A stretch of DNA of 64,000 nucleotides from Fibrobacteria bacterium (GCA_041746255.1 JBGTHM010000032.1:1-64000); one strand, 5' to 3'; numbered from the stretch's first letter, positions 25,111-61,052 are shown. The notes: generated from the sequence alone by a model not told the origin. A program made the numbers and translations.

Positions 25111-25881
25111 ATGGAATCTCGATTGCAGTATCCTAGACATGCCATTTGGCGTTCATATGTTGAAACCGCACGCCGATTACTACGGCTGGAAAACCCGAAT
25201 CGACCCTATCTCGTCAGTTTCCCCAGGTCCGGGAGTCACTTTATCAGCGTTGCATTGGAAAGGTATTGCGGAGGAGCTTCCCCATTTTCGAACTTTCTTG
25301 GATTGGGAGGGCGTAGTTTATTGATATTCCGTATGCATGCGGGGGATTTTCCCAGCACCCACGACTTGAAATTGACCGAACAATTCCGGAATCTTGTCTA
25401 CCTGTATCGCAACCCAATCGACACGCTATACAGTTTTTTAGAATACGAAGGTATCGCGCAAACCGAAGCTAATATACGGACCCAGACGAATCTTTGGATA
25501 AGCCATCTGGAAAAGTGGATTTTTCGCGAATCTTATTCCAAAAAGAAGCTGATACTTTGCTACGAAAATCTGATTGCGGATTTTCCCGCCGAGTTCGGCA
25601 AGTTATTGGACTTTTTGGGTTTCCCCGTCGATACGGACAGGGTGCAAAATGCGTTGGATGGCGCCAGCAAGGAAGAAATTCAGCGATTAACCATCAAGAA
25701 GGACGCCAAAGTCATTCGGAATGATCCGAGTTATCGGAACGGCAGGGAAATTTTCCTCCGCAGCTTCGGTAGTTCAATTCTCAATTCCATGCCACCCCAA
25801 ATCCTTGCCCTGCTTGAAAAGGATGCGCAAAAGACGCGGGTGGGATCGGTAGCGAAGCTTCTTAATCGAGAAGCCTTGTAA
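25111..25881 (+). CDS. PAPS-dependent sulfotransferase domain protein
   Basis: SFPRSGSHF (5'-PSB loop), YLYRNPIDTLYS (3'-PB), YENL..D, LLDFLG. Confidence 0.85.
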   Translation: MESRLQYPRHAIWRSYVETARRLLRLENPNRPYLVSFPRSGSHFISVALERYCGGASPFSNFLGLGGRSLLIFRMHAGDFPSTHDLKLTEQFRNLVYLYRNPIDTLYSFLEYEGIAQTEANIRTQTNLWISHLEKWIFRESYSKKKLILCYENLIADFPAEFGKLLDFLGFPVDTDRVQNALDGASKEEIQRLTIKKDAKVIRNDPSYRNGREIFLRSFGSSILNSMPPQILALLEKDAQKTRVGSVAKLLNREAL

Positions 25882-26361
25882 TCATTCGGCTAAATTTCGT
25901 AAATAGCAATCCAATTCATCGAAAAGACGGGTTGGGCTTTGCATCTCGAAGGGTTTCGGGGGCTGACTCACCTTGAGAGCATCAAGGGTCGCACCCAAAT
26001 CGGCGATGTCGGTGATTACCGGGAACCCCGCCCTGGCCGAAAGCGCGAGGGAAAAAGGGATTTGGTGATCATCTATACACTCCCCGTAACGCGATTGTCG
26101 AGGAACCACTATCAAATGCTTTCTTTGTCGCAGGGCATCGAGAATACCTACGCTTCCGTGGGAAACCACGATGTCCGCCATGCGGATATCCTCCTGGATA
26201 TCCTCCTTGAATTTGAATGCGAGTGCGTGACGGGGTTGGTATTTGGAACTGCCGATTTGAATGAGCACCTTCAATTGAGGCCATGTTGCGGAATACGCAT
26301 CCAATGCCTGCACGAGTCGGTCGAATCCGGAAGTATGCATTCCTACCATTCCAAAAATCAT
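25882..26361 (-). CDS. PssE/Cps14G (Alg13-like) glycosyltransferase subunit
   Basis: MIFGMVG..FDRLV, IQIG, ADIVVSHG, IVVPR...GECIDDHQ. Confidence 0.9.
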   Translation of the reverse strand: MIFGMVGMHTSGFDRLVQALDAYSATWPQLKVLIQIGSSKYQPRHALAFKFKEDIQEDIRMADIVVSHGSVGILDALRQRKHLIVVPRQSRYGECIDDHQIPFSLALSARAGFPVITDIADLGATLDALKVSQPPKPFEMQSPTRLFDELDCYLRNLAE

Positions 26362-30904: not shown

Positions 30905-31348
30905 TTAAAAAACCCCGCCGTAGTATTCTGCTTTTGGGCCCAGAGAACCTAGACTTTCCGGGTTTTGCACAAAAAAGCGATCGCTGAAATGATAAAGGAT
31001 CCGACCCGTATAGGTGATATTCTCAAAACGGGTAATGGTTTCCAGATATACGGTCTTTATGCGAAGTAGCTTTGCTAGGAGAAAGACTGGTATAGCGATT
31101 TCGGATCCCGTGCTTATTACGACTCTAGGCCGTTCCCGGAGAAGGATAAAAAAAACTTTGGCAAAGGCGATGGGCGTTTCCCAAAGGCGGGCGGGAAAAA
31201 CCGGCAATACGTAATGACGGTAGGGAAGAGCGCGTACTCGGGCATAATCGTACGATATAATGAAAAAATCATGCTTTTCCAGCACAGGGAGCAGAAATAG
31301 CACTTCGGTCAAATGCCCCCCTTCGGAGGCGACGACGCATATTTTCAT
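30905..31348 (-). CDS. PssD/Cps14F (Alg14-like) glycosyltransferase subunit
   Basis: VASEGGHLTE, RERPRVVISTGSEIAIP, YLETITR, TGRILY, FFVQ. Confidence 0.92.
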   Translation of the reverse strand: MKICVVASEGGHLTEVLFLLPVLEKHDFFIISYDYARVRALPYRHYVLPVFPARLWETPIAFAKVFFILLRERPRVVISTGSEIAIPVFLLAKLLRIKTVYLETITRFENITYTGRILYHFSDRFFVQNPESLGSLGPKAEYYGGVF

Positions 31349-31462
31349 TTCCACCGATTGGCCACAATCAAACAGGCTCCTTAATCCTAGCATGCATTAT
31401 AGGTCGGTTACCATACGATTTTTGAGTTGAAATATTTCCTACGTAGACATTATAATCATCGA

Positions 31463-31648
31463 ATGAGACTCGAATTCCTTGGATTACTCATGCTAGTCCC
31501 CGCTCCAACTTGGGCATATGTCGATCCGGGAGCGGGTAGCTATCTCATTCAGATGCTGCTTGCGGGAATTCTGGGAAGTTTATTCGCATTCAAAAATTAT
31601 TGGACGCTTTTGTGGCAGCGGCTTCGGGATAAATTCCGCAAGCATTGA
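31463..31648 (+). CDS. Small membrane peptide (61 aa) with signal-like N-terminus and YVDPGAGS motif
   Basis: MRLEFLGLLMLVPAPTWA|YVDPGAGSYLIQMLLAGILGSLFAF..basic tail; similar to 58930-59208; abuts the next gene. Confidence 0.8.
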   Translation: MRLEFLGLLMLVPAPTWAYVDPGAGSYLIQMLLAGILGSLFAFKNYWTLLWQRLRDKFRKH

Positions 31649-31653
31649 CCTGC

Positions 31654-33297
31654 ATGCAAAGTGTGGGTGGCCCCAGTATTCCCCTGAATTATAACCCAGT
31701 CATTACCGTATTCCGAAAATTTTTACTGCATAGCCATGTATGGCTGGTTGGGGCGTATATCCCGATCTTTCTGTATTCCCAAAATCTGGGTCGCTTTTCT
31801 CTCTCCGTGATCTTCAATCCCTTGCTTTGTATTGTTTCCTGCCAATTCGTGCTCTGGCTGGTGGGGGCCTTGATTATGCGTGATCGGGGCAAGGCCGCTA
31901 TTTTTATGACCCTCCAAACTATGGTTTTTTTCGGCTACGGATTCGTTTATGATGGGTTGAGGCAATCTTCCTTGGCACAGACCATCGAATTCCTGGGATG
32001 GAATAACGCACTTTTCCTCGGCTGGCTTCTGGTTTCCATTTTCGTGCTCTATCGCCTTCTCCCATTAAAAGAAACTTCCAGAGGCGTTCATTTTGGGCTG
32101 CATCTCACTGCCCTTGCTCTCCTTGCAGTTCCTTTTTTTCACATTTCTAAGTTTTATTTTTCGGAACGCAGTTGGTCGTCGAAAGGGAGTGATGATGCGA
32201 CGGGACAACAACTTATTGAGATCCTGGGAGTTCGGCCTTCGCAAGGATTACCGGATATTTATCAAATCATATTGGATGCCCATACCCGGTTGGATGTCTT
32301 GCGGGAAGTATATGGTCACGATGCGGAAGATTTCTCACGATATTTGGAGAATGAAGGTTTCCATATAGCGAACAAAGCCTACTCCAATTACAGCTCGACT
32401 CACCTGTCCCTAACCTCCATGCTCAATTTCGAATACCTACAGACTTTGGTTCCGGATTTGAATGAAAATTCCACCGATTTGAATGTCTTAAACGATTTAA
32501 AAGGAAACCCACGTATCGTGCGCATACTTCGGGAATTGGGTTATCGATATATCGCCTTGCAAAATGGGTGGGAAAGGGAGGAGGGCGAGTATGCGGATAC
32601 TTTCATTGGACCCGAACGCTCATTGACTGGGCTTTTTTTGAACGAGTTTGCCAATGGCATTTTGTTCATGACGCCGATTCCCTATATTAATCGGTCCATC
32701 CGGCCGGGCGCTTCGAATAACATGGGTATTGAGCGGGAACGGATTTTGTGGTTTCTCGAATTTATGAAAGAAGTCCATGTGGAAAAAGGTCCGAAGTTTG
32801 TTTTTGCCCATGTCTTATCGCCGCATGTTCCCATTCTGTTCGGGCCGAACGGTGAACCCATCGATGATTTTCCCGAATTCAGCGAATTACGGATTACAAA
32901 TCCTCGAATGGCTGCAGATGGCGTAAGCGGGCAAAGTCATTTTCTGCATACTCATCTAAAGGAAATCATCCATTCCTTGAAAAAAAATACTCAAGGTAAC
33001 GCCATTATCCTTATACATTCCGACCATGGTGAAGCACTCTCTCCCTATGAGGATGGGGTGGAACATGTTTGGCAACAGCATGCGAGCCTACATGCTCTCT
33101 ATCTTCCTCCCGGAATGGACCGCAGCCAGTTTTCCGAGCAACTTACCCTCGTTAATACTTTTAGGATTATATTGAATGCCGGTTTTGGCGCTAAGTTGCC
33201 ATTATTGGAAGATCGGATATTCTACTCAGGAATGAAAAAGCGATTTCTGTTTCAAGACTATACCGATTCACTTGGAGGCCCGGAAAGCCTTAGGTAA
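31654..33297 (+). CDS. Multi-TM alkaline-phosphatase/sulfatase-fold protein (LtaS/EptA-like, Thr nucleophile)
   Basis: About 5 N-terminal TMs; PDIYQIILDAH, YSNYSSTHLSLTSMLN, FVFAHVLSPHVP, IHSDHG; no CxPxR motif. Confidence 0.8.
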   Translation: MQSVGGPSIPLNYNPVITVFRKFLLHSHVWLVGAYIPIFLYSQNLGRFSLSVIFNPLLCIVSCQFVLWLVGALIMRDRGKAAIFMTLQTMVFFGYGFVYDGLRQSSLAQTIEFLGWNNALFLGWLLVSIFVLYRLLPLKETSRGVHFGLHLTALALLAVPFFHISKFYFSERSWSSKGSDDATGQQLIEILGVRPSQGLPDIYQIILDAHTRLDVLREVYGHDAEDFSRYLENEGFHIANKAYSNYSSTHLSLTSMLNFEYLQTLVPDLNENSTDLNVLNDLKGNPRIVRILRELGYRYIALQNGWEREEGEYADTFIGPERSLTGLFLNEFANGILFMTPIPYINRSIRPGASNNMGIERERILWFLEFMKEVHVEKGPKFVFAHVLSPHVPILFGPNGEPIDDFPEFSELRITNPRMAADGVSGQSHFLHTHLKEIIHSLKKNTQGNAIILIHSDHGEALSPYEDGVEHVWQQHASLHALYLPPGMDRSQFSEQLTLVNTFRIILNAGFGAKLPLLEDRIFYSGMKKRFLFQDYTDSLGGPESLR

Positions 33298-34120
33298 ATA
33301 TCGGAAAAATCGCCTTTGGGAACAGGTGACGGGATATCGATTCCTGGAAAGGGTGACTCGACGAGTGGTGGATTATTTTAAATATGAATTAGAATTATGT
33401 GAATCCATAGTCATGCCCTTGTTTTCCCGGTTGAACCTGGATTTGGCAGGAAAATCGGTTTTGGATGCGGGTTGCGGACATGGAGGGGTCATAGCCGGAT
33501 TAAGCTCCGGATTCTCCCTGGGAGAGGCAATCGGGCTGGACCGCGACGAAAAAATGTTGGATAGCGCCCGAAGTCGCCGACTCGATAAAATCGAATGGTT
33601 ACAAGCCGATTTTCTGAGCTACTCGGGAAAAACCTTTGATTTGGTGCTGTTGCGGGATGTTCTGGAACATATCGGTGATGTAAAAGGCGCGCTGCGAAAA
33701 ACTTTCGACCTGCTAAAGCCCGGAGGATCGGCCTATGTGACTTTCGCCCCTTTCTATTCACCCTTTGGCGGCCATCAACACAATGGCGAAGGTTTGGGCG
33801 CCTATTTGCCCTGGGTGCATTTGTTGCCTGAGGGCCTGTTCCGTAGGCTGTTGCGTCTTCCCGGGAACAGTTATAAAACTGGAGACAAGTTACGGGAGGA
33901 TATCGATTCGGTTTTCGCTACCAAACTTTCTTTACGAAGCATGGCCAGAGAATTGCCTAGCCTGCCCTGGGAAGTGGAATACCGCGCTTATTACTTTTCG
34001 CGTCCCGACTACCGGCTGAAATTCGGAATGCCCTCCGTGTGTTTGCCTTCGTGGACTCCCTTACCCTTGGCGGAACTTGCCACCACGGGCGCCGAATTCC
34101 TGCTTCGGAAAAAGGCGTGA
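33272..34120 (+). CDS. Class I SAM-dependent methyltransferase
   Basis: VLDAGCGHGG, GLD, FDLVLLRDVLEHI, LKPGG, PFYSPFGGHQH; start uncertain. Confidence 0.88.
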   Translation: MEARKALGKYRKNRLWEQVTGYRFLERVTRRVVDYFKYELELCESIVMPLFSRLNLDLAGKSVLDAGCGHGGVIAGLSSGFSLGEAIGLDRDEKMLDSARSRRLDKIEWLQADFLSYSGKTFDLVLLRDVLEHIGDVKGALRKTFDLLKPGGSAYVTFAPFYSPFGGHQHNGEGLGAYLPWVHLLPEGLFRRLLRLPGNSYKTGDKLREDIDSVFATKLSLRSMARELPSLPWEVEYRAYYFSRPDYRLKFGMPSVCLPSWTPLPLAELATTGAEFLLRKKA

Positions 34121-36166: not shown

Positions 36167-37606
36167 GTGCTATTCCATACCCTGGATTTCGCGGTTTTCC
36201 TTCCGACGGTTTTTCTCCTTTATTGGTTCGCTACCCAGGGCGATCGTAAAACCCAAAACGTTTTATTGGTATGTGCGAGTTACATCTTCTACGGATGGTG
36301 GGACTGGCGGTTTTTATCGTTGATGTTACTTAGTACCCTCGTCGACTATTCTGTGGCGCGCGCGCTCTCATCACAAAAAGGCATCATTATAAGGAAAGGT
36401 TTGCTAGGAACAAGCATATTGGTAAACCTGGGTGTCTTGGGGTTATTTAAATATCATGGATTCTTCATAGGGGAATTTTCGCAAGGGTTTTCCTTTATGG
36501 GCCAAGAAATAAAAGCGGGCTCCCTCAATATTATACTTCCCCTGGGCATAAGCTTTTATACACTGCAAACCCTGGGTTATTCTATAGACGTATATCGCAG
36601 GAAGGTTGAACCGGCGAGCGATTTCGTGGCATTTTCCGCTTTCGTGGCGTTTTTTCCTCAGTTAGTAGCGGGTCCGATAGAGCGGGCTAATAACCTACTT
36701 CCGCAATTTTATGGAGAAAGGAGATTCGATAACGGCAAAGCGGTAGACGGGTTAAGGCAAATGCTTTGGGGGCTGTTCAAAAAAGTCGTCATCGCGGATA
36801 ATTGCGCGCCATATGTCAACATGATTTTCGCCAATCCATCCGAATATTCCGGAAGCACACTGGTCATGGGGGCAGTACTTTTCGCGGTACAAATTTACTG
36901 TGATTTTTCGGGTTACTCCGATATAGCCATCGGCACCTCCCGGCTTTTCGGATTCGAGTTGAAAAGAAATTTCGCATTTCCCTATTTTTCCCGGGACATC
37001 GCCGAGTTCTGGAGGAGATGGCATATCTCCCTCTCGACTTGGTTTAGGGACTACCTCTATATCCCGTTAGGAGGAAGTCGAACGGGTAGGTTAACGACCC
37101 TCAGAAATACGTTACTGATTTTCATAGTGAGTGGAGTATGGCATGGAGCAAATTGGACCTTTGTGGCATGGGGCCTATTGCATGCGCTTTTCTTCTTGCC
37201 TTTGGTACTGTTGAATAAAAACCGTGTCCACCTGGGAATCGTCGGGGAAGGAAGATGGTTTCCTACGCTAAGCGACCTGGTGAAAATAGGAGTCACTTTC
37301 GCATTGACGGTAATGGCATGGATATTTTTTAGAGCGGAAAGTATTAACCATGCCCTGAGCTACTTCTCTGGAATTTTTTCGGTCTCGCTTTTCTCCTTCC
37401 CGGATTTCATTCCCAAGACTGTGATACTATTTAGTGTCTTCTTCCTGGCTATTGAGTGGTTGGGGCGGGGGCAACAATACGCCATAGAAATTCTCACAAT
37501 TAATTCCGGAAGACCTATCCGGTGGGGGGTGTACCTTGGCCTGGTTTTGACCATATTTTTCTTCTATCCGAGTAACCCTCAAGAATTCATTTATTTTCAA
37601 TTCTAA
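36167..37606 (+). CDS. MBOAT O-acyltransferase (AlgI/PatA/DltB-like)
   Basis: SYIFYGWWDWRF, LPLGISFYT, FFPQLVAGPIER, YCDFSGYSD, FWRRWHISLSTWFRDYLY, GVWHGA, C-terminal FIYFQF. Confidence 0.95.
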   Translation: MLFHTLDFAVFLPTVFLLYWFATQGDRKTQNVLLVCASYIFYGWWDWRFLSLMLLSTLVDYSVARALSSQKGIIIRKGLLGTSILVNLGVLGLFKYHGFFIGEFSQGFSFMGQEIKAGSLNIILPLGISFYTLQTLGYSIDVYRRKVEPASDFVAFSAFVAFFPQLVAGPIERANNLLPQFYGERRFDNGKAVDGLRQMLWGLFKKVVIADNCAPYVNMIFANPSEYSGSTLVMGAVLFAVQIYCDFSGYSDIAIGTSRLFGFELKRNFAFPYFSRDIAEFWRRWHISLSTWFRDYLYIPLGGSRTGRLTTLRNTLLIFIVSGVWHGANWTFVAWGLLHALFFLPLVLLNKNRVHLGIVGEGRWFPTLSDLVKIGVTFALTVMAWIFFRAESINHALSYFSGIFSVSLFSFPDFIPKTVILFSVFFLAIEWLGRGQQYAIEILTINSGRPIRWGVYLGLVLTIFFFYPSNPQEFIYFQF

Positions 37607-37609
37607 GAA

Positions 37610-38572
37610 ATGAAAATATTCCTGGTAAAAGTCGTATTTTTCGCGTCGGCATCGCTTTTTTTGATCCTGACGATCGGAATTGCGGCTTCCAAAATCGTTG
37701 CATCCCAGGCGATATTCGCCGCCCGCAGCGAAACCAAATACGTTATTTTCGGACATTCGCATCCGGAAGTCGCATTCAATGATGCCTACATTTCCAATTT
37801 TCAAAATTTCTCCAAATCGTCCGAACCCTACATGTATATTCTCCCGAAAGTAAAGAATCTCATCCATCAAAATCCGAATATCGAAGTCGTTTTCATCGAG
37901 TTTACCAATGATCAGATCATGGAAGGCTGGGACCGTCGAATTGGATCCAGTCGGCTGATGAATGAATGGATGCCACTTTACGGCGCTTTTTTGGAAGCGT
38001 CCGACTTATTTTTCTTGTTTCGGGGGAACCCAATTGGTTTGGTTGAGGCATTGACTATTTCCTTCCGGATCCAATTCAAAAAGATGTGGAGCCGCAAATA
38101 TCCTGCTGAAAATATTGGGGGGTATTTTAACCTGGAGAGGGATAATACCGATTCCCTTTTACAGTCTCTTACGGAATCCGGTCATGATGAAATCGAATCG
38201 GGAGATGAGAGGCTTTCGGAATATCATATTCAATGCTTGAAGAGAATTGCCGCTTTTTGCAGGAATAGCCGGAAAAAAGTTTTTTTAGTCCGAAGCCCTC
38301 AGCATCCATCATGGATTAGGCGGAAAAATGAAAGTTTGTTCCAGCAGGTAAGGAAAGAAACTTTCCGAGACCTCGACTTTCTGGATTTCAATGATTTCCC
38401 CATTTCCAATTCGGAATTTGGGGATTTGAGACACCTTAATCATCGAGGTGCCTATAAATTCTCGGTTTGGTTCAACCAACTACTGGAAGATGGGCTATTG
38501 GACAGGGGGAATAAGTCGGATTATATCGAAAAAAAAATCCGTGAAATGGACAGCACCCTTAGTTCCAATTGA
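37610..38572 (+). CDS. Membrane-anchored SGNH-like partner of the MBOAT (AlgJ/DltD-like)
   Basis: N-terminal TM, FGHSH (GxS), FGDLRHLNHRGA (DxxH); immediately downstream of the MBOAT. Confidence 0.75.
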   Translation: MKIFLVKVVFFASASLFLILTIGIAASKIVASQAIFAARSETKYVIFGHSHPEVAFNDAYISNFQNFSKSSEPYMYILPKVKNLIHQNPNIEVVFIEFTNDQIMEGWDRRIGSSRLMNEWMPLYGAFLEASDLFFLFRGNPIGLVEALTISFRIQFKKMWSRKYPAENIGGYFNLERDNTDSLLQSLTESGHDEIESGDERLSEYHIQCLKRIAAFCRNSRKKVFLVRSPQHPSWIRRKNESLFQQVRKETFRDLDFLDFNDFPISNSEFGDLRHLNHRGAYKFSVWFNQLLEDGLLDRGNKSDYIEKKIREMDSTLSSN

Positions 38573-57450: not shown

Positions 57451-58833
57451 ATGCCCCCGGAAATTCTGCCCAGTTCCTTTCGCGATCCATCCGGATTCGT
57501 CTTCAAAAAGGATGGCGAGGTTTTCCGGCAGGTCAATTCCAGCTATAGCGAAAACTATTCCCGGTTAATCGACTCAGGACTCTATTCCCGTCTGGTGGAA
57601 AAAGGTTTACTGCTGAGCCATGAAGAAGTTGATTCCCTTTTCGTGGCGCCGGGTGGCTTCAAGGTATTACGACCTCGTCGTGTCCCATTTATAAGCTATC
57701 CCTTCGAATGGAGCTTTACCCAACTTAAAAATGCAGCTCTCACAACACTGGAAATTCAACGGGAATCCATGAAGTCGGGTCTGTCCCTCAAAGATGCGAG
57801 CGCCTACAACATCCAGTTCGTGGAAGGCCGGCCGATATTGATGGATACCTTGTCGTTCGAGGTTTTCGATCCGGGAAAACCCTGGGTGGCCTACCGGCAA
57901 TTTTGCCAGCATTTCCTGGCCCCCTTGCTGCTCATGCGCTATAAAGATGTGCGTTGCGGACTGCTGTCCCGGATTTTTCTGGACGGCATTCCCCTGGACA
58001 TGACCAGCGGAATGCTACCGAAACGAACGTATTTCCGATTTTCCATTTTCGCCCATATTCATCTGCATGCTTACTTCCAGGGTAAAAAAACCGGTGGTTC
58101 AGTCAAGCCGCGGAAGTTACCGGATAATGCCATTCCAGGATTGGTGGACGGTCTTTTCCGAGCGGTAAAAAACTTACAGCTGCCGGCGCTTAAATCCACT
58201 TGGTCCGATTATTATCACAATACCAATTATTCGGAAGCGGCTTTTCAGCATAAAACCTCGGTGGTAGGGGAATGGATACGCGCCGTAAAGCCTGCGCAGG
58301 TTTGGGATTTGGGGGCCAACACGGGTGCGTTCAGCCGGCTCGCGGCTCAAGAGAAAATTCCGGTAATGGCCTTCGACTTTGACGCGCGGGCGGTGGATAT
58401 CCATTATCAAGAACTGATGACGAAAGGCGAAAAGAACATTTTGCCCTTGGTGATGAACTTGGAAAACCCAAGTCCGGGGCTGGGTTGGGCAGGAAGAGAG
58501 CGAATGTCTTTGGGGGAGAGAGGGCCTGCCGACATGATTATGGCATTGGCGCTTATCCATCATTTGGCCATAGGAAACAATCTGCCCTTCCGGATGATAG
58601 CGGGCTATTTGGCCGAATGTTGCCATACCTTAATCATCGAGTTCATCGAAAAGGAAGACTCCCAGGTGGTGAGAATGCTGGTCCATCGCCAAGATGTATT
58701 CCAGGGCTACAACCGGGCCTCCTTTGAAGAAGAATTCGGTAATTTTTTCGAAATCTCCGAGACCACCGCCATTCAAGAATCCCAACGGGTATTGTATCTC
58801 ATGCGATCGAAGCGCCATTCCGCTCAGCCTTGA
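57451..58833 (+). CDS. NoeA-like protein: kinase-like N domain plus class I SAM methyltransferase
   Basis: SFRDPSGFVF, FISYPFEWS, LKDASAYN, MDTLSFE, WVAYRQFCQHFLAPL; WDLGANTG, LALIHHL; start at ATG 57451. Confidence 0.85.
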   Translation: MPPEILPSSFRDPSGFVFKKDGEVFRQVNSSYSENYSRLIDSGLYSRLVEKGLLLSHEEVDSLFVAPGGFKVLRPRRVPFISYPFEWSFTQLKNAALTTLEIQRESMKSGLSLKDASAYNIQFVEGRPILMDTLSFEVFDPGKPWVAYRQFCQHFLAPLLLMRYKDVRCGLLSRIFLDGIPLDMTSGMLPKRTYFRFSIFAHIHLHAYFQGKKTGGSVKPRKLPDNAIPGLVDGLFRAVKNLQLPALKSTWSDYYHNTNYSEAAFQHKTSVVGEWIRAVKPAQVWDLGANTGAFSRLAAQEKIPVMAFDFDARAVDIHYQELMTKGEKNILPLVMNLENPSPGLGWAGRERMSLGERGPADMIMALALIHHLAIGNNLPFRMIAGYLAECCHTLIIEFIEKEDSQVVRMLVHRQDVFQGYNRASFEEEFGNFFEISETTAIQESQRVLYLMRSKRHSAQP

Positions 58834-58929
58834 AATCCCCTGGGTAGGGTGGTAGTATCATCCTATCGAATATGCGTTACGCGAACAGGGTCGATTTTTC
58901 CTTCCATGATGGGGCTTGGGGTTAAGTAA

Positions 58930-59208
58930 ATGCCATACCCGGCGATGGTGATTTTGCTTTGGGCTGGTTTGGGTGAAGCCCAGGCTTATATTGATCCCGG
59001 TGTCGGTTCGGCTCTTTTCCAAGGCTTGTATGCGCTCCTCTTCGGCACTGTTTTCGCCTGGATCCTGAAGCCTTGGGTTTTTATCAAGGTATTTTTAAGC
59101 CGGTGGAGTAAGCGGGAAACGAGCGTGCCCGGCTCAGCGTCCCCGAAAAGCGGCCAAGCGGATCCTGATTCCGATAAGCGCTCGAACCCTTCCAAGCAAC
59201 GGGAATAA
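58930..59208 (+). CDS. Small membrane peptide with signal-like N-terminus and YIDPGVGS motif
   Basis: MVILLWAGLGEAQA|YIDPGVGSALFQGLYALLFGTVFAWILKPW..; similar to 31463-31648. Confidence 0.8.
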   Translation: MPYPAMVILLWAGLGEAQAYIDPGVGSALFQGLYALLFGTVFAWILKPWVFIKVFLSRWSKRETSVPGSASPKSGQADPDSDKRSNPSKQRE

Positions 59209-59213
59209 TCCGC

Positions 59214-61052
59214 GTGCAGAAAATTCTGGCCATACCTTGGTTGTATGCATGCCTGATATTCATTTCGATTCATGTTTTGGCCCGCGATGATCTCCTGCTC
59301 CAATCCGACTTCTTAAGTCTGTTACTTTATGCCTCCGGAATAATCGGAATTCTGTTTATCGCATTCCTGCCGCCAATCCTATTGTCCCACAGGGTACTGC
59401 CTGCACATACGGTCGGGAAGCTCCTGACATCGGCGGCGGGCGGAGCGGCGGTAATCTTGGGATGGCTTTTCTTGATCGGCTCGTTTCGATGGGTTTTTCC
59501 GGATGTTCCTACTGCCGGGTGGCAGAGGTCGGCCCTGTTTTACGGCGGTGCGCTGGTGGCAGCCATGCTGCTGGTACGTCTACGACCCGGCCGCCTCTCG
59601 TTGGATAAACCGGTACTGCAGGTGGCCACGCTGGGCCTCATGCTCTGGGGGCTTACCTTGGTGTTGGCATGGCCCTATAAGCGCTTCCAAGCCATGGGTC
59701 CTCCTGCGATGCAGCAGCGCCATGCCGCGCTTCTCGTTCTGGACGCGCTTCCGGTGCAAGCCTTGCAAAGTTTCAATCCTGCCACGCCGCTATCCAAGCT
59801 CGACGAGGTACTTGCCAATGGGACCCTCTGGGACAGGGTATACTCCTGGAATCCCTGGACGCATGCCTGGTTCGGAACCCTCTATAATGGTCGCAGCCAT
59901 TGGCAAAACGAAAAGGGGGTTATGCAAAAACCACTGCGGAGCGACCCCAATCTATTCGGCTTGCTCGCGGAAGCGGATGTACGCTCGCGGTGGGTGGTTT
60001 TCCATCGCAACGGCAGTTGCGAAGGTAGCGCCGGTCATACAACCGGTTATCCAGGGGTACGGTCACATCTGCTGGGACCGGGACTCGCTTGGTTGCCGGC
60101 CGTACTGGGAGTGGATTTTCATCTCATGCTATCCAGTGATTCACCTACCGAAAAATTTACGGGTAACCCGGTGCGTCGTTTGATTTTTTCTCTTTTCAAT
60201 CCGGTGGGGCCGCAAGCAAACGTTTTCATGGAGACATTGCTACCGGAATTGAAAAGACTGCGACGGAATTCGTCCAACTCGCTGTTGGTTTTCCATGTGC
60301 GGTGGGACCATACCGGTGCGACGGCTTTCCAGCCCGTTTTACGCACCCTGGAGGATTCACGGGTAGCCGAAAATATCCGCCGGCACGACTATGCCTATGC
60401 TATTTCAGATAGTGACGCCGTGGTTTTCGCGCAAGAGATACGGGAGGGGTTCCGGGACGAAATGAATCTGTTGGGGGCTCGGCTTGCAGCTTTTCTGCAG
60501 GCGTTGAACGAAGATTCGAATTTGAAAAATACCGATATTTTTTTGACATCGGATCATGGCACCGTGGCGGATGATGGAAAAATATGGTATGGATACCATA
60601 CGGATGAGCGGGTGGTACGCATACCCTTCGCCCATCTCACCGGCGCGCCGAAGCGCCCCGATGGCATGTTTTTCACTCCGGATATTCCCGCGACCTTTTT
60701 GGATTGGTTCGAGGCTGAGGGGAGTCTTGGCCTAGGCCGTTCGCTGCTGCGTCATCAAGGCCGCGACTCCCTCTTCTGCCTGGCATTGAATTCGGAGACG
60801 CGGAAATCCTGGCCATTGGCGCTCTATCGGCGGGATTGGAAATTCGAGATAAATATCCACCCCCAATCCGACCTCACCTGGGCCCAGGGACGCATCCAGG
60901 GGATGCATTTCCATACGGAGGAGAGCGGTTCCGGGCTACCCTCCGAGATGGCGCCTTTTGTAGGCACGGCTTTGCATTCGCTGGGGGTTCCGCGAGGAAA
61001 CCTCCATCCCGGTTTGCTGGAACTTACTCGAGACCACACCGGAAATTTTTAG
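59214..61052 (+). CDS. Multi-TM alkaline-phosphatase/sulfatase-fold protein (Thr nucleophile)
   Basis: About 5 N-terminal TMs; LLVLDAL, YSWNPWTHAWFGTLY, FHVRWDH, FLTSDHG, YGYH..VVRIP, DIPATFLD. Confidence 0.78.
   Translation: MQKILAIPWLYACLIFISIHVLARDDLLLQSDFLSLLLYASGIIGILFIAFLPPILLSHRVLPAHTVGKLLTSAAGGAAVILGWLFLIGSFRWVFPDVPTAGWQRSALFYGGALVAAMLLVRLRPGRLSLDKPVLQVATLGLMLWGLTLVLAWPYKRFQAMGPPAMQQRHAALLVLDALPVQALQSFNPATPLSKLDEVLANGTLWDRVYSWNPWTHAWFGTLYNGRSHWQNEKGVMQKPLRSDPNLFGLLAEADVRSRWVVFHRNGSCEGSAGHTTGYPGVRSHLLGPGLAWLPAVLGVDFHLMLSSDSPTEKFTGNPVRRLIFSLFNPVGPQANVFMETLLPELKRLRRNSSNSLLVFHVRWDHTGATAFQPVLRTLEDSRVAENIRRHDYAYAISDSDAVVFAQEIREGFRDEMNLLGARLAAFLQALNEDSNLKNTDIFLTSDHGTVADDGKIWYGYHTDERVVRIPFAHLTGAPKRPDGMFFTPDIPATFLDWFEAEGSLGLGRSLLRHQGRDSLFCLALNSETRKSWPLALYRRDWKFEINIHPQSDLTWAQGRIQGMHFHTEESGSGLPSEMAPFVGTALHSLGVPRGNLHPGLLELTRDHTGNF

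Follow-up and report, generated by a model that had tools for sequence, protein, structure and literature searches.

What does a membrane protein of 61 amino acids (aa) contribute to the enzyme whose gene begins just behind its own? The question is raised by a stretch of DNA from Fibrobacteria bacterium (GCA_041746255.1 JBGTHM010000032.1:1-64000), 64,000 nucleotides long and called the window throughout, in which positions 31463 to 34120 encode a microprotein with the motif YVDPGAGS, a multi-pass membrane enzyme of the alkaline phosphatase (AP) superfamily and a methyltransferase. A preliminary description of this DNA, made from the sequence alone, took the three for a new system. Judged by sequence comparison, the gene set belongs instead to the noeA/noeB cassette, which is known and whose chemistry is unsolved. 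We consider it on balance probable that the microprotein serves envelope enzymes that install phosphate groups as a shared membrane subunit or adaptor, working here in a two-gene unit with a NoeB-like enzyme. The genes at the locus are as follows.

31463..31648, + strand: microprotein copy 1 (61 aa), with a leader-like segment at residues 1-18 ending in TWA, YVDPGAGS at 19-26, a membrane helix at about 25-43 and a basic tail at 44-61

31654..33297, + strand: NoeB-like membrane AP-superfamily enzyme S1 (547 aa), with an N-terminal multi-pass membrane part and a PF00884 domain containing D208, T249, H386, H391 and D457-H458

33272..34120, + strand: class I S-adenosylmethionine (SAM) methyltransferase (282 aa; PF08241, E 1.5e-15), a neighbour in a glycan cluster and not a conserved part of the unit

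The microprotein gene bears out the layout first proposed for it. Translation of the open reading frame (ORF) at 31463-31648 (+) gives MRLEFLGLLMLVPAPTWA-YVDPGAGS-YLIQMLLAGILGSLFAF-KNYWTLLWQRLRDKFRKH, with the leader-like segment, the motif, one transmembrane helix and the basic tail in that order. Its stop codon occupies 31646-31648 and the ATG of S1 stands at 31654, which leaves a gap of 5 bases; no clear Shine-Dalgarno sequence was seen ahead of the microprotein's own ATG. For the two closer paralogues of the genome, the proportion of nonsynonymous differences (pN) in the annotated frame is 0.23, compared to 0.77 for synonymous differences (pS), while in both of the other frames pN exceeds pS. 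This signal, confined to the annotated frame, marks a conserved coding ORF and speaks against chance.

S1 matches the Pfam Sulfatase family PF00884 over residues 236-472 (E 2e-7; 31.1 bits, cut-off 25), and its hydropathy profile contains at least three strong segments within the first 170 residues (57-75, 120-138 and 144-165), along with weaker ones. A 26-sequence alignment shows D208 (ILDAH), T249, H386, H391, D457 and G459 (SDHG) to be invariant, and the conserved residues fall in the stretches ILDAH, SNYxxT, AHxxxPH and SDHG. The nucleophile position is occupied in all 26 sequences by an invariant Thr inside SNYxxTxLSL, with no Pro or Arg; the C/S-x-P-x-R motif of formylglycine sulfatases is thus absent. 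Searching the PDB with S1 as a single sequence returned one match (E 0.91) and nothing useful. The profile of the enzyme family can be aligned with solved sulfatases at their metal-site motifs (6s21, E 3.9e-6), and residue roles were assigned via that alignment; matches to EptA entries are marginal (5fgn, E 0.022; 4kav, E 0.006). The idea that the NoeB-like enzymes themselves have a YidC-like membrane part was considered and rejected (hhalign probability 0.7%). The initial portrait of a multi-pass AP-superfamily enzyme with LDAH and SDHG ligands, Thr in place of CxPxR, and a start within 6 nucleotides of the microprotein gene therefore stands. From the sequence, the catalytic domain would face outward.

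The unit is present more than once in this genome, and a second copy lies in the window itself.

57451..58833, + strand: NoeA-type protein (460 aa), with a kinase-like N-domain (1-245), a class I methyltransferase domain (247-457) and no membrane segment

58930..59208, + strand: microprotein copy 2 (92 aa), with AQA-YIDPGVGS, a membrane helix and a longer charged tail

59214..61052, + strand: divergent AP-superfamily membrane enzyme S2 (612 aa; PF00884, E 2e-7)

The preliminary description had the same trio recurring at 57451-61052, which holds in part. A microprotein, an AP-fold enzyme and a methyltransferase-type gene are all present there, and the gap between microprotein and S2 is again 5 bases. 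However, the order differs (NoeA, microprotein, enzyme in copy 2; microprotein, enzyme, methyltransferase in copy 1), the two methyltransferases are unrelated (best BLASTP E 1.6), and S1 and S2 are 23% identical, with a BLASTP match confined to the membrane part. A third pair consists of a microprotein at G000:C117:14908-15090 and an adjacent 527-aa enzyme, with no methyltransferase alongside. All three copies contain the motif (A/G)-Y-x-D-x-G-x-G-S followed by a membrane helix. A hidden Markov model (HMM) of NoeB-like enzymes, built from cassette enzymes with S1 and S2 included, has exactly three strong matches among the 6,796 ORFs of at least 150 aa in the genome, and each of them directly follows one of the three microprotein genes. 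NoeA adjoins only the pair of copy 2; copy 1 and the C117 copy are without it. The 282-aa methyltransferase of copy 1, which is encoded after the enzyme just as first reported, was tried as part of the unit and rejected, because it is unrelated to NoeA and absent beside both the C117 copy and a related pair in G071. The preliminary description had taken the NoeA-type protein of copy 2 for an ordinary methyltransferase; the methyltransferase of copy 1 is explained by its glycan cluster setting as a neighbour. The genome also has a second, divergent NoeA-family gene (431 aa; HMM E 1e-49) at G000:C115:86851-88158 on the minus strand (the same as L116:3852-5144), with no adjacent microprotein or NoeB-like gene.

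What kind of system is this? Among 65 plasmid records, from Sinorhizobium symbiotic plasmids, the 460-aa protein of the window matches 'nodulation protein NoeA' with 34% identity over 97% of its length (E 5e-71). On pSymA of Sinorhizobium meliloti, the gene order is nodL, an unnamed 71-aa ORF, noeA and noeB, and the 71-aa ORF reads ..VPAHA-YLDPGTGSMLVQ.. (VPAHA-YLDPGTGS). All three products are matched by the corresponding HMMs (NoeA, 8.7e-139; NoeB, 3.4e-30; 71-aa ORF, 2.4e-17). According to papers citing Ardourel et al. from 1995, the noeA/noeB operon is reportedly flavonoid-inducible and needed for nodulating particular Medicago species.

The neighbourhood has, moreover, been described before. 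In the available sections of a 2022 study of the Legionella kinome (PMC9758233), it appears as Lani_1193-1194-1195 of Legionella anisa. There, Lani_1194 is a kinase with Arg where Lys is usual, and in 94% of ∼2,000 homologues a methyltransferase is fused to it; Lani_1193 and Lani_1195 adjoin in 65% and 38% of 816 neighbourhoods; and an AP fold is given for Lani_1195 and NoeB. The same sections assign no function to the Lani_1194 family, leaving its chemistry unsolved, and list Lani_1193 as a 'hypothetical protein' without a domain; the motif, the family size and the fusions described below do not figure in them. What had been put forward as new thus corresponds to the small ORF-noeA-noeB set of pSymA.

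NoeA combines two domains. Neither matched any PDB entry when the whole protein was searched as a single sequence, and since structure searches with the complete NoeA model recovered matches to its methyltransferase part only, the N-domain was modelled separately. The AF2 models have a predicted local distance difference test score (pLDDT) of 90.9 and a predicted template modelling score (pTM) of 0.92 for the whole protein, and a pLDDT of 93.1 for the N-domain. All 50 of the VIA matches listed for the N-domain (1-245) are protein kinases (Z 8.2-9.9; 163-205 residues aligned; root-mean-square deviation (rmsd) 4.2-5.3), and the top Foldseek match is amicoumacin kinase (E 3.6e-5). D115, N120 and D132 are invariant and spaced like the catalytic loop and metal-binding Asp of kinases. 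For the methyltransferase domain, the best PDB sequence match is WbdD (E 1.5e-4), with CypM among the weak ones (E 0.0085). Its structural matches include ChlM and the methylphosphate-capping enzyme (Z 17.7 each), BCDIN3D (17.1) and WbdD (16.4), tied with many other methyltransferases; given these ties, the domain does not discriminate, and we discarded the idea of reading phosphate methylation from its fold. Hydropathy analysis found no membrane segment in NoeA. As described in the available part of PMC3482155, WbdD phosphorylates a terminal mannose and then methylates that phosphate. By analogy, WbdD is the nearest functional model for NoeA, which may likewise methylate a phosphate. A literature search for a WbdD-like kinase/methyltransferase occurring with a sulfatase and a small membrane protein found nothing relevant.

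How widespread is the microprotein? A homologue search by word index, started from the 61-aa protein, recovered nothing but that protein (2 matches), and an exhaustive profile search was required. With a profile of 19 microprotein members run against 1.84 billion proteins, and counting cluster representatives, we obtained 13,565 at E ≤ 1e-3 and 4,503 at E ≤ 1e-10. Matches occur in 25 of 296 genomes of the window's phylum. No Pfam or NCBIfam model matches the peptides, and NCBI labels two of the top family matches 'hypothetical protein'. In the ESM Atlas the peptide matches only 'hypothetical protein' clusters (best score 0.90), and S1 matches PF00884 clusters. A literature search for the motif strings YLDPGTGS, YIDPGTGS, YLDPGSGS, YIDPGSGS and DPGTGSY found no paper containing them. 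In the top-scoring family match, P0003 (161 aa), the entire module of leader, YLDPxxG motif and helix occurs twice in tandem.

The best 150 matches are 62-161 aa in length, and 147 of them contain the strict motif. Among these 147, the Tyr, the Asp, both Gly and a Gln 11 residues past the Tyr are invariant; the Thr/Ser position is kept in 143, the Ser in 144 and the Pro in 133. The motif would form a cap: a turn rich in Gly and then, where the helix begins, a Ser and a Gln spaced three residues apart. Ahead of the motif Tyr runs an uncharged segment with a median of 14 residues; position -1 is A/G/S/C in 147/147 and position -3 is A/V/S/T/I/G in 144/147. These motif and leader figures are somewhat circular, because the profile was built from sequences having that feature. 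In one genus of the window's phylum, the module stands behind nine extra residues without a leader (MNFGNKKG-YLDPGTGN) on a TagF-like fusion, and a free N-terminal Tyr is therefore not universal.

We then scanned neighbourhoods, taking one genome per species and starting from a 5-member alignment and the pattern [WCH]AY[LVI]DPG[TA]G; at least 598 pattern matches were found, of which 456 were confirmed by tblastn. The best 80 of the 456, from many phyla, were examined. The NoeA family is present in 70/80 loci and directly downstream of the microprotein in 61/80. The NoeB-like HMM finds an AP-fold enzyme in 46/80, to which PF00884 adds 4. AP-fold enzymes are thus present in 50/80 loci, and NoeA is the commoner partner. 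Most often (29 loci, and 4 with extra enzyme copies) the microprotein gene is followed by that of the 460-aa protein and then by that of the AP-fold enzyme. Upstream genes differ and are unrelated from locus to locus; the three genes therefore form a self-contained cassette. The locus L104:5980-9050 has a stand-alone microprotein; behind it come a TagF-like gene (PF04464) and a fusion of phosphoenolpyruvate mutase and nucleotidyltransferase, which suggests a phosphonate-decorating variant.

The module also occurs as part of longer proteins. A search among proteins of 162-2000 aa (7,998 candidates scored, E ≤ 1e-3) gave 93 with a microprotein module, located within the first 60 residues in 88. 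PF04464, the TagF/TagB glycerophosphotransferase family, is carried by 57 of the 93. Three others are in-frame fusions of module and NoeA via a Lys-rich linker, one of them from a Legionella metagenome bin, and one (P0165) joins the module to a NoeB-like enzyme with its own membrane helices. The NoeA and TagF-like fusions indicate that the tail end connects to cytoplasmic enzymes. At L112:4041-5408, in Planctomycetales, a leader-YVDPGTGG-helix module is fused to an arylsulfotransferase (PF14269, PF05935), with tetratricopeptide repeat proteins flanking.

For the TagF-like fusions, we examined the best 80 of 414 confirmed metagenomic loci; with crude gene calls, the fusion gene was found in 57 and a downstream gene in 53, and dereplication left 36. 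In 32 of the 36, the protein encoded directly downstream of the TagF-like protein with the module begins with a YidC/Oxa1-type domain, PF02096. PF00884 is present as well in 17 of these 32 downstream proteins, and four of them score 1e-127 to 1e-151 (best 2e-151) with the NoeB-like HMM. The module therefore adjoins AP-fold enzymes in a second kind of system. Examples of the YidC/AP-fold fusion, among loci L118-L197, are L155:1917-4124 and L122:6291-9149; we know of no described fusion of this type, although no literature search aimed at it was made.

Do the microprotein and the AP-fold enzyme act together? In favour of a real partnership are the 1:1 adjacency in the genome, the two pairs there that lack NoeA, and the natural fusion of the module to a NoeB-like enzyme. 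We also predicted a complex of S1 with microprotein residues 19-61 from our own alignments, in three runs with three controls. The ipSAE is 0.54 (runs 0.56, 0.54 and 0.53), compared to 0.00 for the best of the controls; the runs share at least 95% of contacts, and the partner pLDDT is at least 75. The mark used here was reached by 116/157 solved complexes and by 2/215 mismatched pairs. The preliminary description had suggested a carrier or an obligate subunit. The adjacency, the 80-locus tallies, the fusions and the weak pass in complex prediction (0.54 versus 0.00) lend the subunit idea indirect support.

In the model that we favour as the somewhat better supported by probability, a shared membrane subunit or adaptor, the microprotein would be a single-pass protein with its N-terminus outside and its C-terminus inside, and would associate with the AP-fold enzyme in the membrane. 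For this model we infer topology, leader cleavage, physical binding, donor, acceptor and transferred group. S1, via Thr249 and a metal site of D208, D457 and H458 with H386 and H391, would take a phosphate-containing group from a donor bound to the membrane and pass it to a glycan of the envelope, like LtaS, EptA and BcsG. In full cassettes such as copy 2, the basic cytoplasmic tail of the microprotein could also tie in soluble NoeA, whose role, on the inner side of the membrane, would be to prepare a phosphate or methyl-phosphate group. Cleavage before the Tyr, proposed at the outset, is plausible from the small residues at -1 and -3 and from likeness to M13 procoat, which is similarly built of a leader, an AxA site, a short acidic outer tail, a helix and a basic tail.

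Several observations weigh against this model. A complex score of 0.54 is a weak pass, as only 18/157 solved complexes pass at or below 0.60, together with both of the passing mismatches. The 80 loci are non-random, pattern-chosen best hits, which weakens the counts drawn from them. Among the 57 loci with at least 3.2 kb downstream, an AP-fold gene was not seen in 13, and the microprotein therefore does not always need such a neighbour. S1 is only distantly related to NoeB (BLASTP 8e-5 and 1e-4, in two segments covering the Asp/Thr and the His/Asp-His regions), and for S2 the pairwise match to NoeB is not significant (0.023). The AP-fold profile fits hydrolytic sulfatases (3.9e-6) better than EptA (0.022). 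Cleavage is contradicted by a published SignalP 6.0 table in the available supplement of PMC9758233, where 5/5 listed Legionella homologues are NO_SP with a signal-peptide probability of 0.08-0.36. Finally, BcsF, a small peptide encoded beside the AP-fold protein BcsG, contacts only the cytosolic BcsE in the available account of that system (PMC11470070). Since BcsF touches BcsE and not BcsG, adjacency alone does not show contact.

Could the microprotein do without the AP-fold enzyme altogether? It might be a pure membrane tether that recruits cytoplasmic NoeA or TagF-like proteins via its basic tail, has no functional contact with the AP-fold enzyme, and keeps its outer motif only for YidC-type insertion. 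Such a role accords with NoeA being the commonest neighbour (70/80 loci, 61 of them directly downstream) and lacking a membrane segment, with 60 of the 61 identified fusions being to cytoplasmic enzymes (3 NoeA, 57 PF04464), with a YidC-type domain encoded beside the module-bearing TagF-like genes in 32/36 loci, and with a layout like that of M13 procoat. BcsF, which recruits BcsE in the portion of PMC11470070 available, sets a precedent. We nevertheless think a mere tether unlikely: two of the three pairs in the genome have an AP-fold enzyme as the only partner, with neither NoeA nor a TagF-like protein; the P0165 fusion joins the module to an enzyme that has membrane helices of its own; the Y, D, G, G and Q are invariant in 147/147, seemingly more than an insertion signal needs; and the S1 complex passes, if weakly (0.54 versus 0.00). 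More ambitious is the proposal of the preliminary description that the invariant outer Tyr, once freed by cleavage, is transiently phosphorylated or sulfated and then delivers that group to either the AP-fold enzyme or the glycan, in the manner of DltX, whose Tyr shuttles D-alanine. The Tyr is indeed invariant (147/147) directly past an AxA-type site, and the L112 module is fused to an arylsulfotransferase, from an enzyme family acting on phenols. Against this, AP-fold transferases of the LtaS/EptA type own a Thr nucleophile and use lipid donors, the fusions to TagF-like proteins and NoeA put the Tyr across the membrane from the fused catalytic domain, and one genus has the leaderless module. 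DltX sets a precedent, having an invariant outer Tyr and occurring stand-alone or fused (available part of PMC12148441); the Legionella homologues are NO_SP (PMC9758233, supplement as available). We regard a Tyr carrier as quite doubtful. Much the same doubt attaches to a related shuttle, in which, after procoat-like, YidC-dependent insertion and cleavage, the Y-x-D-P-G-x-G-S cap would serve as holder or carrier of a phosphate- or sulfate-type group between NoeA or a TagF-like protein and the outward AP-fold enzyme, with the YidC-like domains as part of the relay.

Two further explanations concern the peptide as such. NoeA could phosphorylate and methylate the peptide on its motif Tyr, Thr or Ser before insertion, as in ribosomal peptide natural-product clusters. 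A short ORF stands directly upstream of the kinase-like/methyltransferase gene in 61/80 loci, the motif hydroxyls are conserved (Y in 147, T/S in 143 and S in 144 of 147), and one of the weak PDB matches is to CypM, an N-methyltransferase of peptides (E 0.0085). Yet microprotein/AP-fold pairs occur without NoeA, the module serves as an N-terminal membrane segment on TagF-like, NoeB-like and NoeA proteins, and the motif is predicted to lie outside, NoeA inside; a peptide substrate is thus very improbable in our view. A chance origin of the small ORF, or a regulatory upstream role for it, combined with an ordinary sulfatase next to it, we find scarcely credible. The absence of a Pfam or NCBIfam model and of a clear Shine-Dalgarno sequence would suit a chance ORF, and PDB sulfatases are the best matches of the AP-fold profile. 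Conservation contradicts the ORF part (13,565 cluster representatives in the family; pN 0.23 versus pS 0.77 in the annotated frame only), as do the in-frame fusions; the invariant Thr without CxPxR and the N-terminal multi-pass membrane part speak against an ordinary sulfatase.

The surroundings of copy 1 fit glycan decoration. It sits in a surface-glycan cluster with a Wzx-type flippase, glycosyltransferase family 2 genes, a sulfotransferase, a DegT aminotransferase and two methyltransferases, and further with split Alg13/Alg14-like genes, YdjC, an MBOAT, a UDP-sugar dehydrogenase and an epimerase. Features near the unit are:

25111-25878, + strand: Sulfotransfer_1 (PF00685) gene of the same glycan cluster; a sulfated glycan is possible

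25885-26361 and 30905-31393, - strand: Alg13-like (Glyco_tran_28_C) and Alg14-like genes, ∼4.5 kb apart, the Alg14-like one directly upstream of the microprotein on the opposite strand

36167-37606, + strand: MBOAT (PF03062), ending in ..EFIYFQF, which fits the FxYxxF acyl-shuttle motif of DltX and PatA-type MBOATs (PMC12148441, part available)

37610-38569, + strand: 320-aa ORF with no Pfam match at 1e-5, which may encode an SGNH-type partner of the MBOAT

Collectively, these data suggest that the cassette probably decorates the cell surface with a phosphate-based group. Since 1995, noeA/noeB has stood as a determinant of host range with unsolved chemistry, and the cassette is found in thousands of genomes across many phyla, including candidate-phyla bacteria. 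To this we add that the microprotein is its most widely shared part, that it pairs 1:1 with the AP-fold enzyme even where NoeA is absent, as in this genome, and that its module recurs at the N-terminus of TagF-like transferases, with YidC-like/AP-fold fusion proteins encoded behind them. As a small, mutable hub, the microprotein offers a handle on the mechanism of the cassette, and S. meliloti is a tractable host. Should the outer Tyr/Asp cap bind or carry a group, it would be a second trans-membrane microprotein relay after DltX; should the microprotein be an anchor only, a very large family that now lacks annotation would gain an ordinary but useful one.

Known systems resemble parts of this arrangement. 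WbdD of E. coli O9a, like NoeA, has a kinase-fold domain and a class I methyltransferase (Z 16.4, rmsd 3.1, 190 residues aligned), but its methyltransferase precedes the kinase and a C-terminal coiled coil follows, whereas NoeA has the reverse order and no further domain (PMC3482155, part available); WbdD also has no microprotein or AP-fold partner. DltX, of teichoic acid D-alanylation, is a membrane microprotein with an invariant outer Tyr, stand-alone or enzyme-fused like the present module; it has a C-terminal FxYxxF, MBOAT and SGNH partners and an acyl carrier role, in contrast to the N-terminal YxDPGxGS, basic C-terminus and kinase-like, AP-fold and TagF-like partners seen here (PMC12148441, same part). 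The closest relative is the small ORF-NoeA-NoeB set (S. meliloti nodL operon, nod box n5; Legionella Lani_1193-1195), which comprises the same three families; copy 1 and the C117 copy differ in lacking NoeA, copy 2 in its order of NoeA, microprotein and enzyme, and S1 and S2 are distant from NoeB. Enzymes of the LtaS, EptA and MCR-1 type have in common with S1 an N-terminal multi-pass part, a PF00884 domain (outward in S1 by prediction), a Thr nucleophile and an Asp-His metal site; the first metal ligand of S1 is Asp, as in sulfatases, and that of the LtaS/EptA/MCR-1 type is Glu. BcsF is not known to have a leader or the YxDPGxGS motif, and the nucleophile of BcsG is Ser, not Thr. Even so, the BcsE-BcsF-BcsG set of E. 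coli, which makes phosphoethanolamine cellulose, is alike by description: the gene for a single-pass peptide whose tail is cytosolic lies between those for a cytosolic protein and for a membrane AP-fold transferase that modifies a glycan outside the cytoplasm (PMC11470070, available part).

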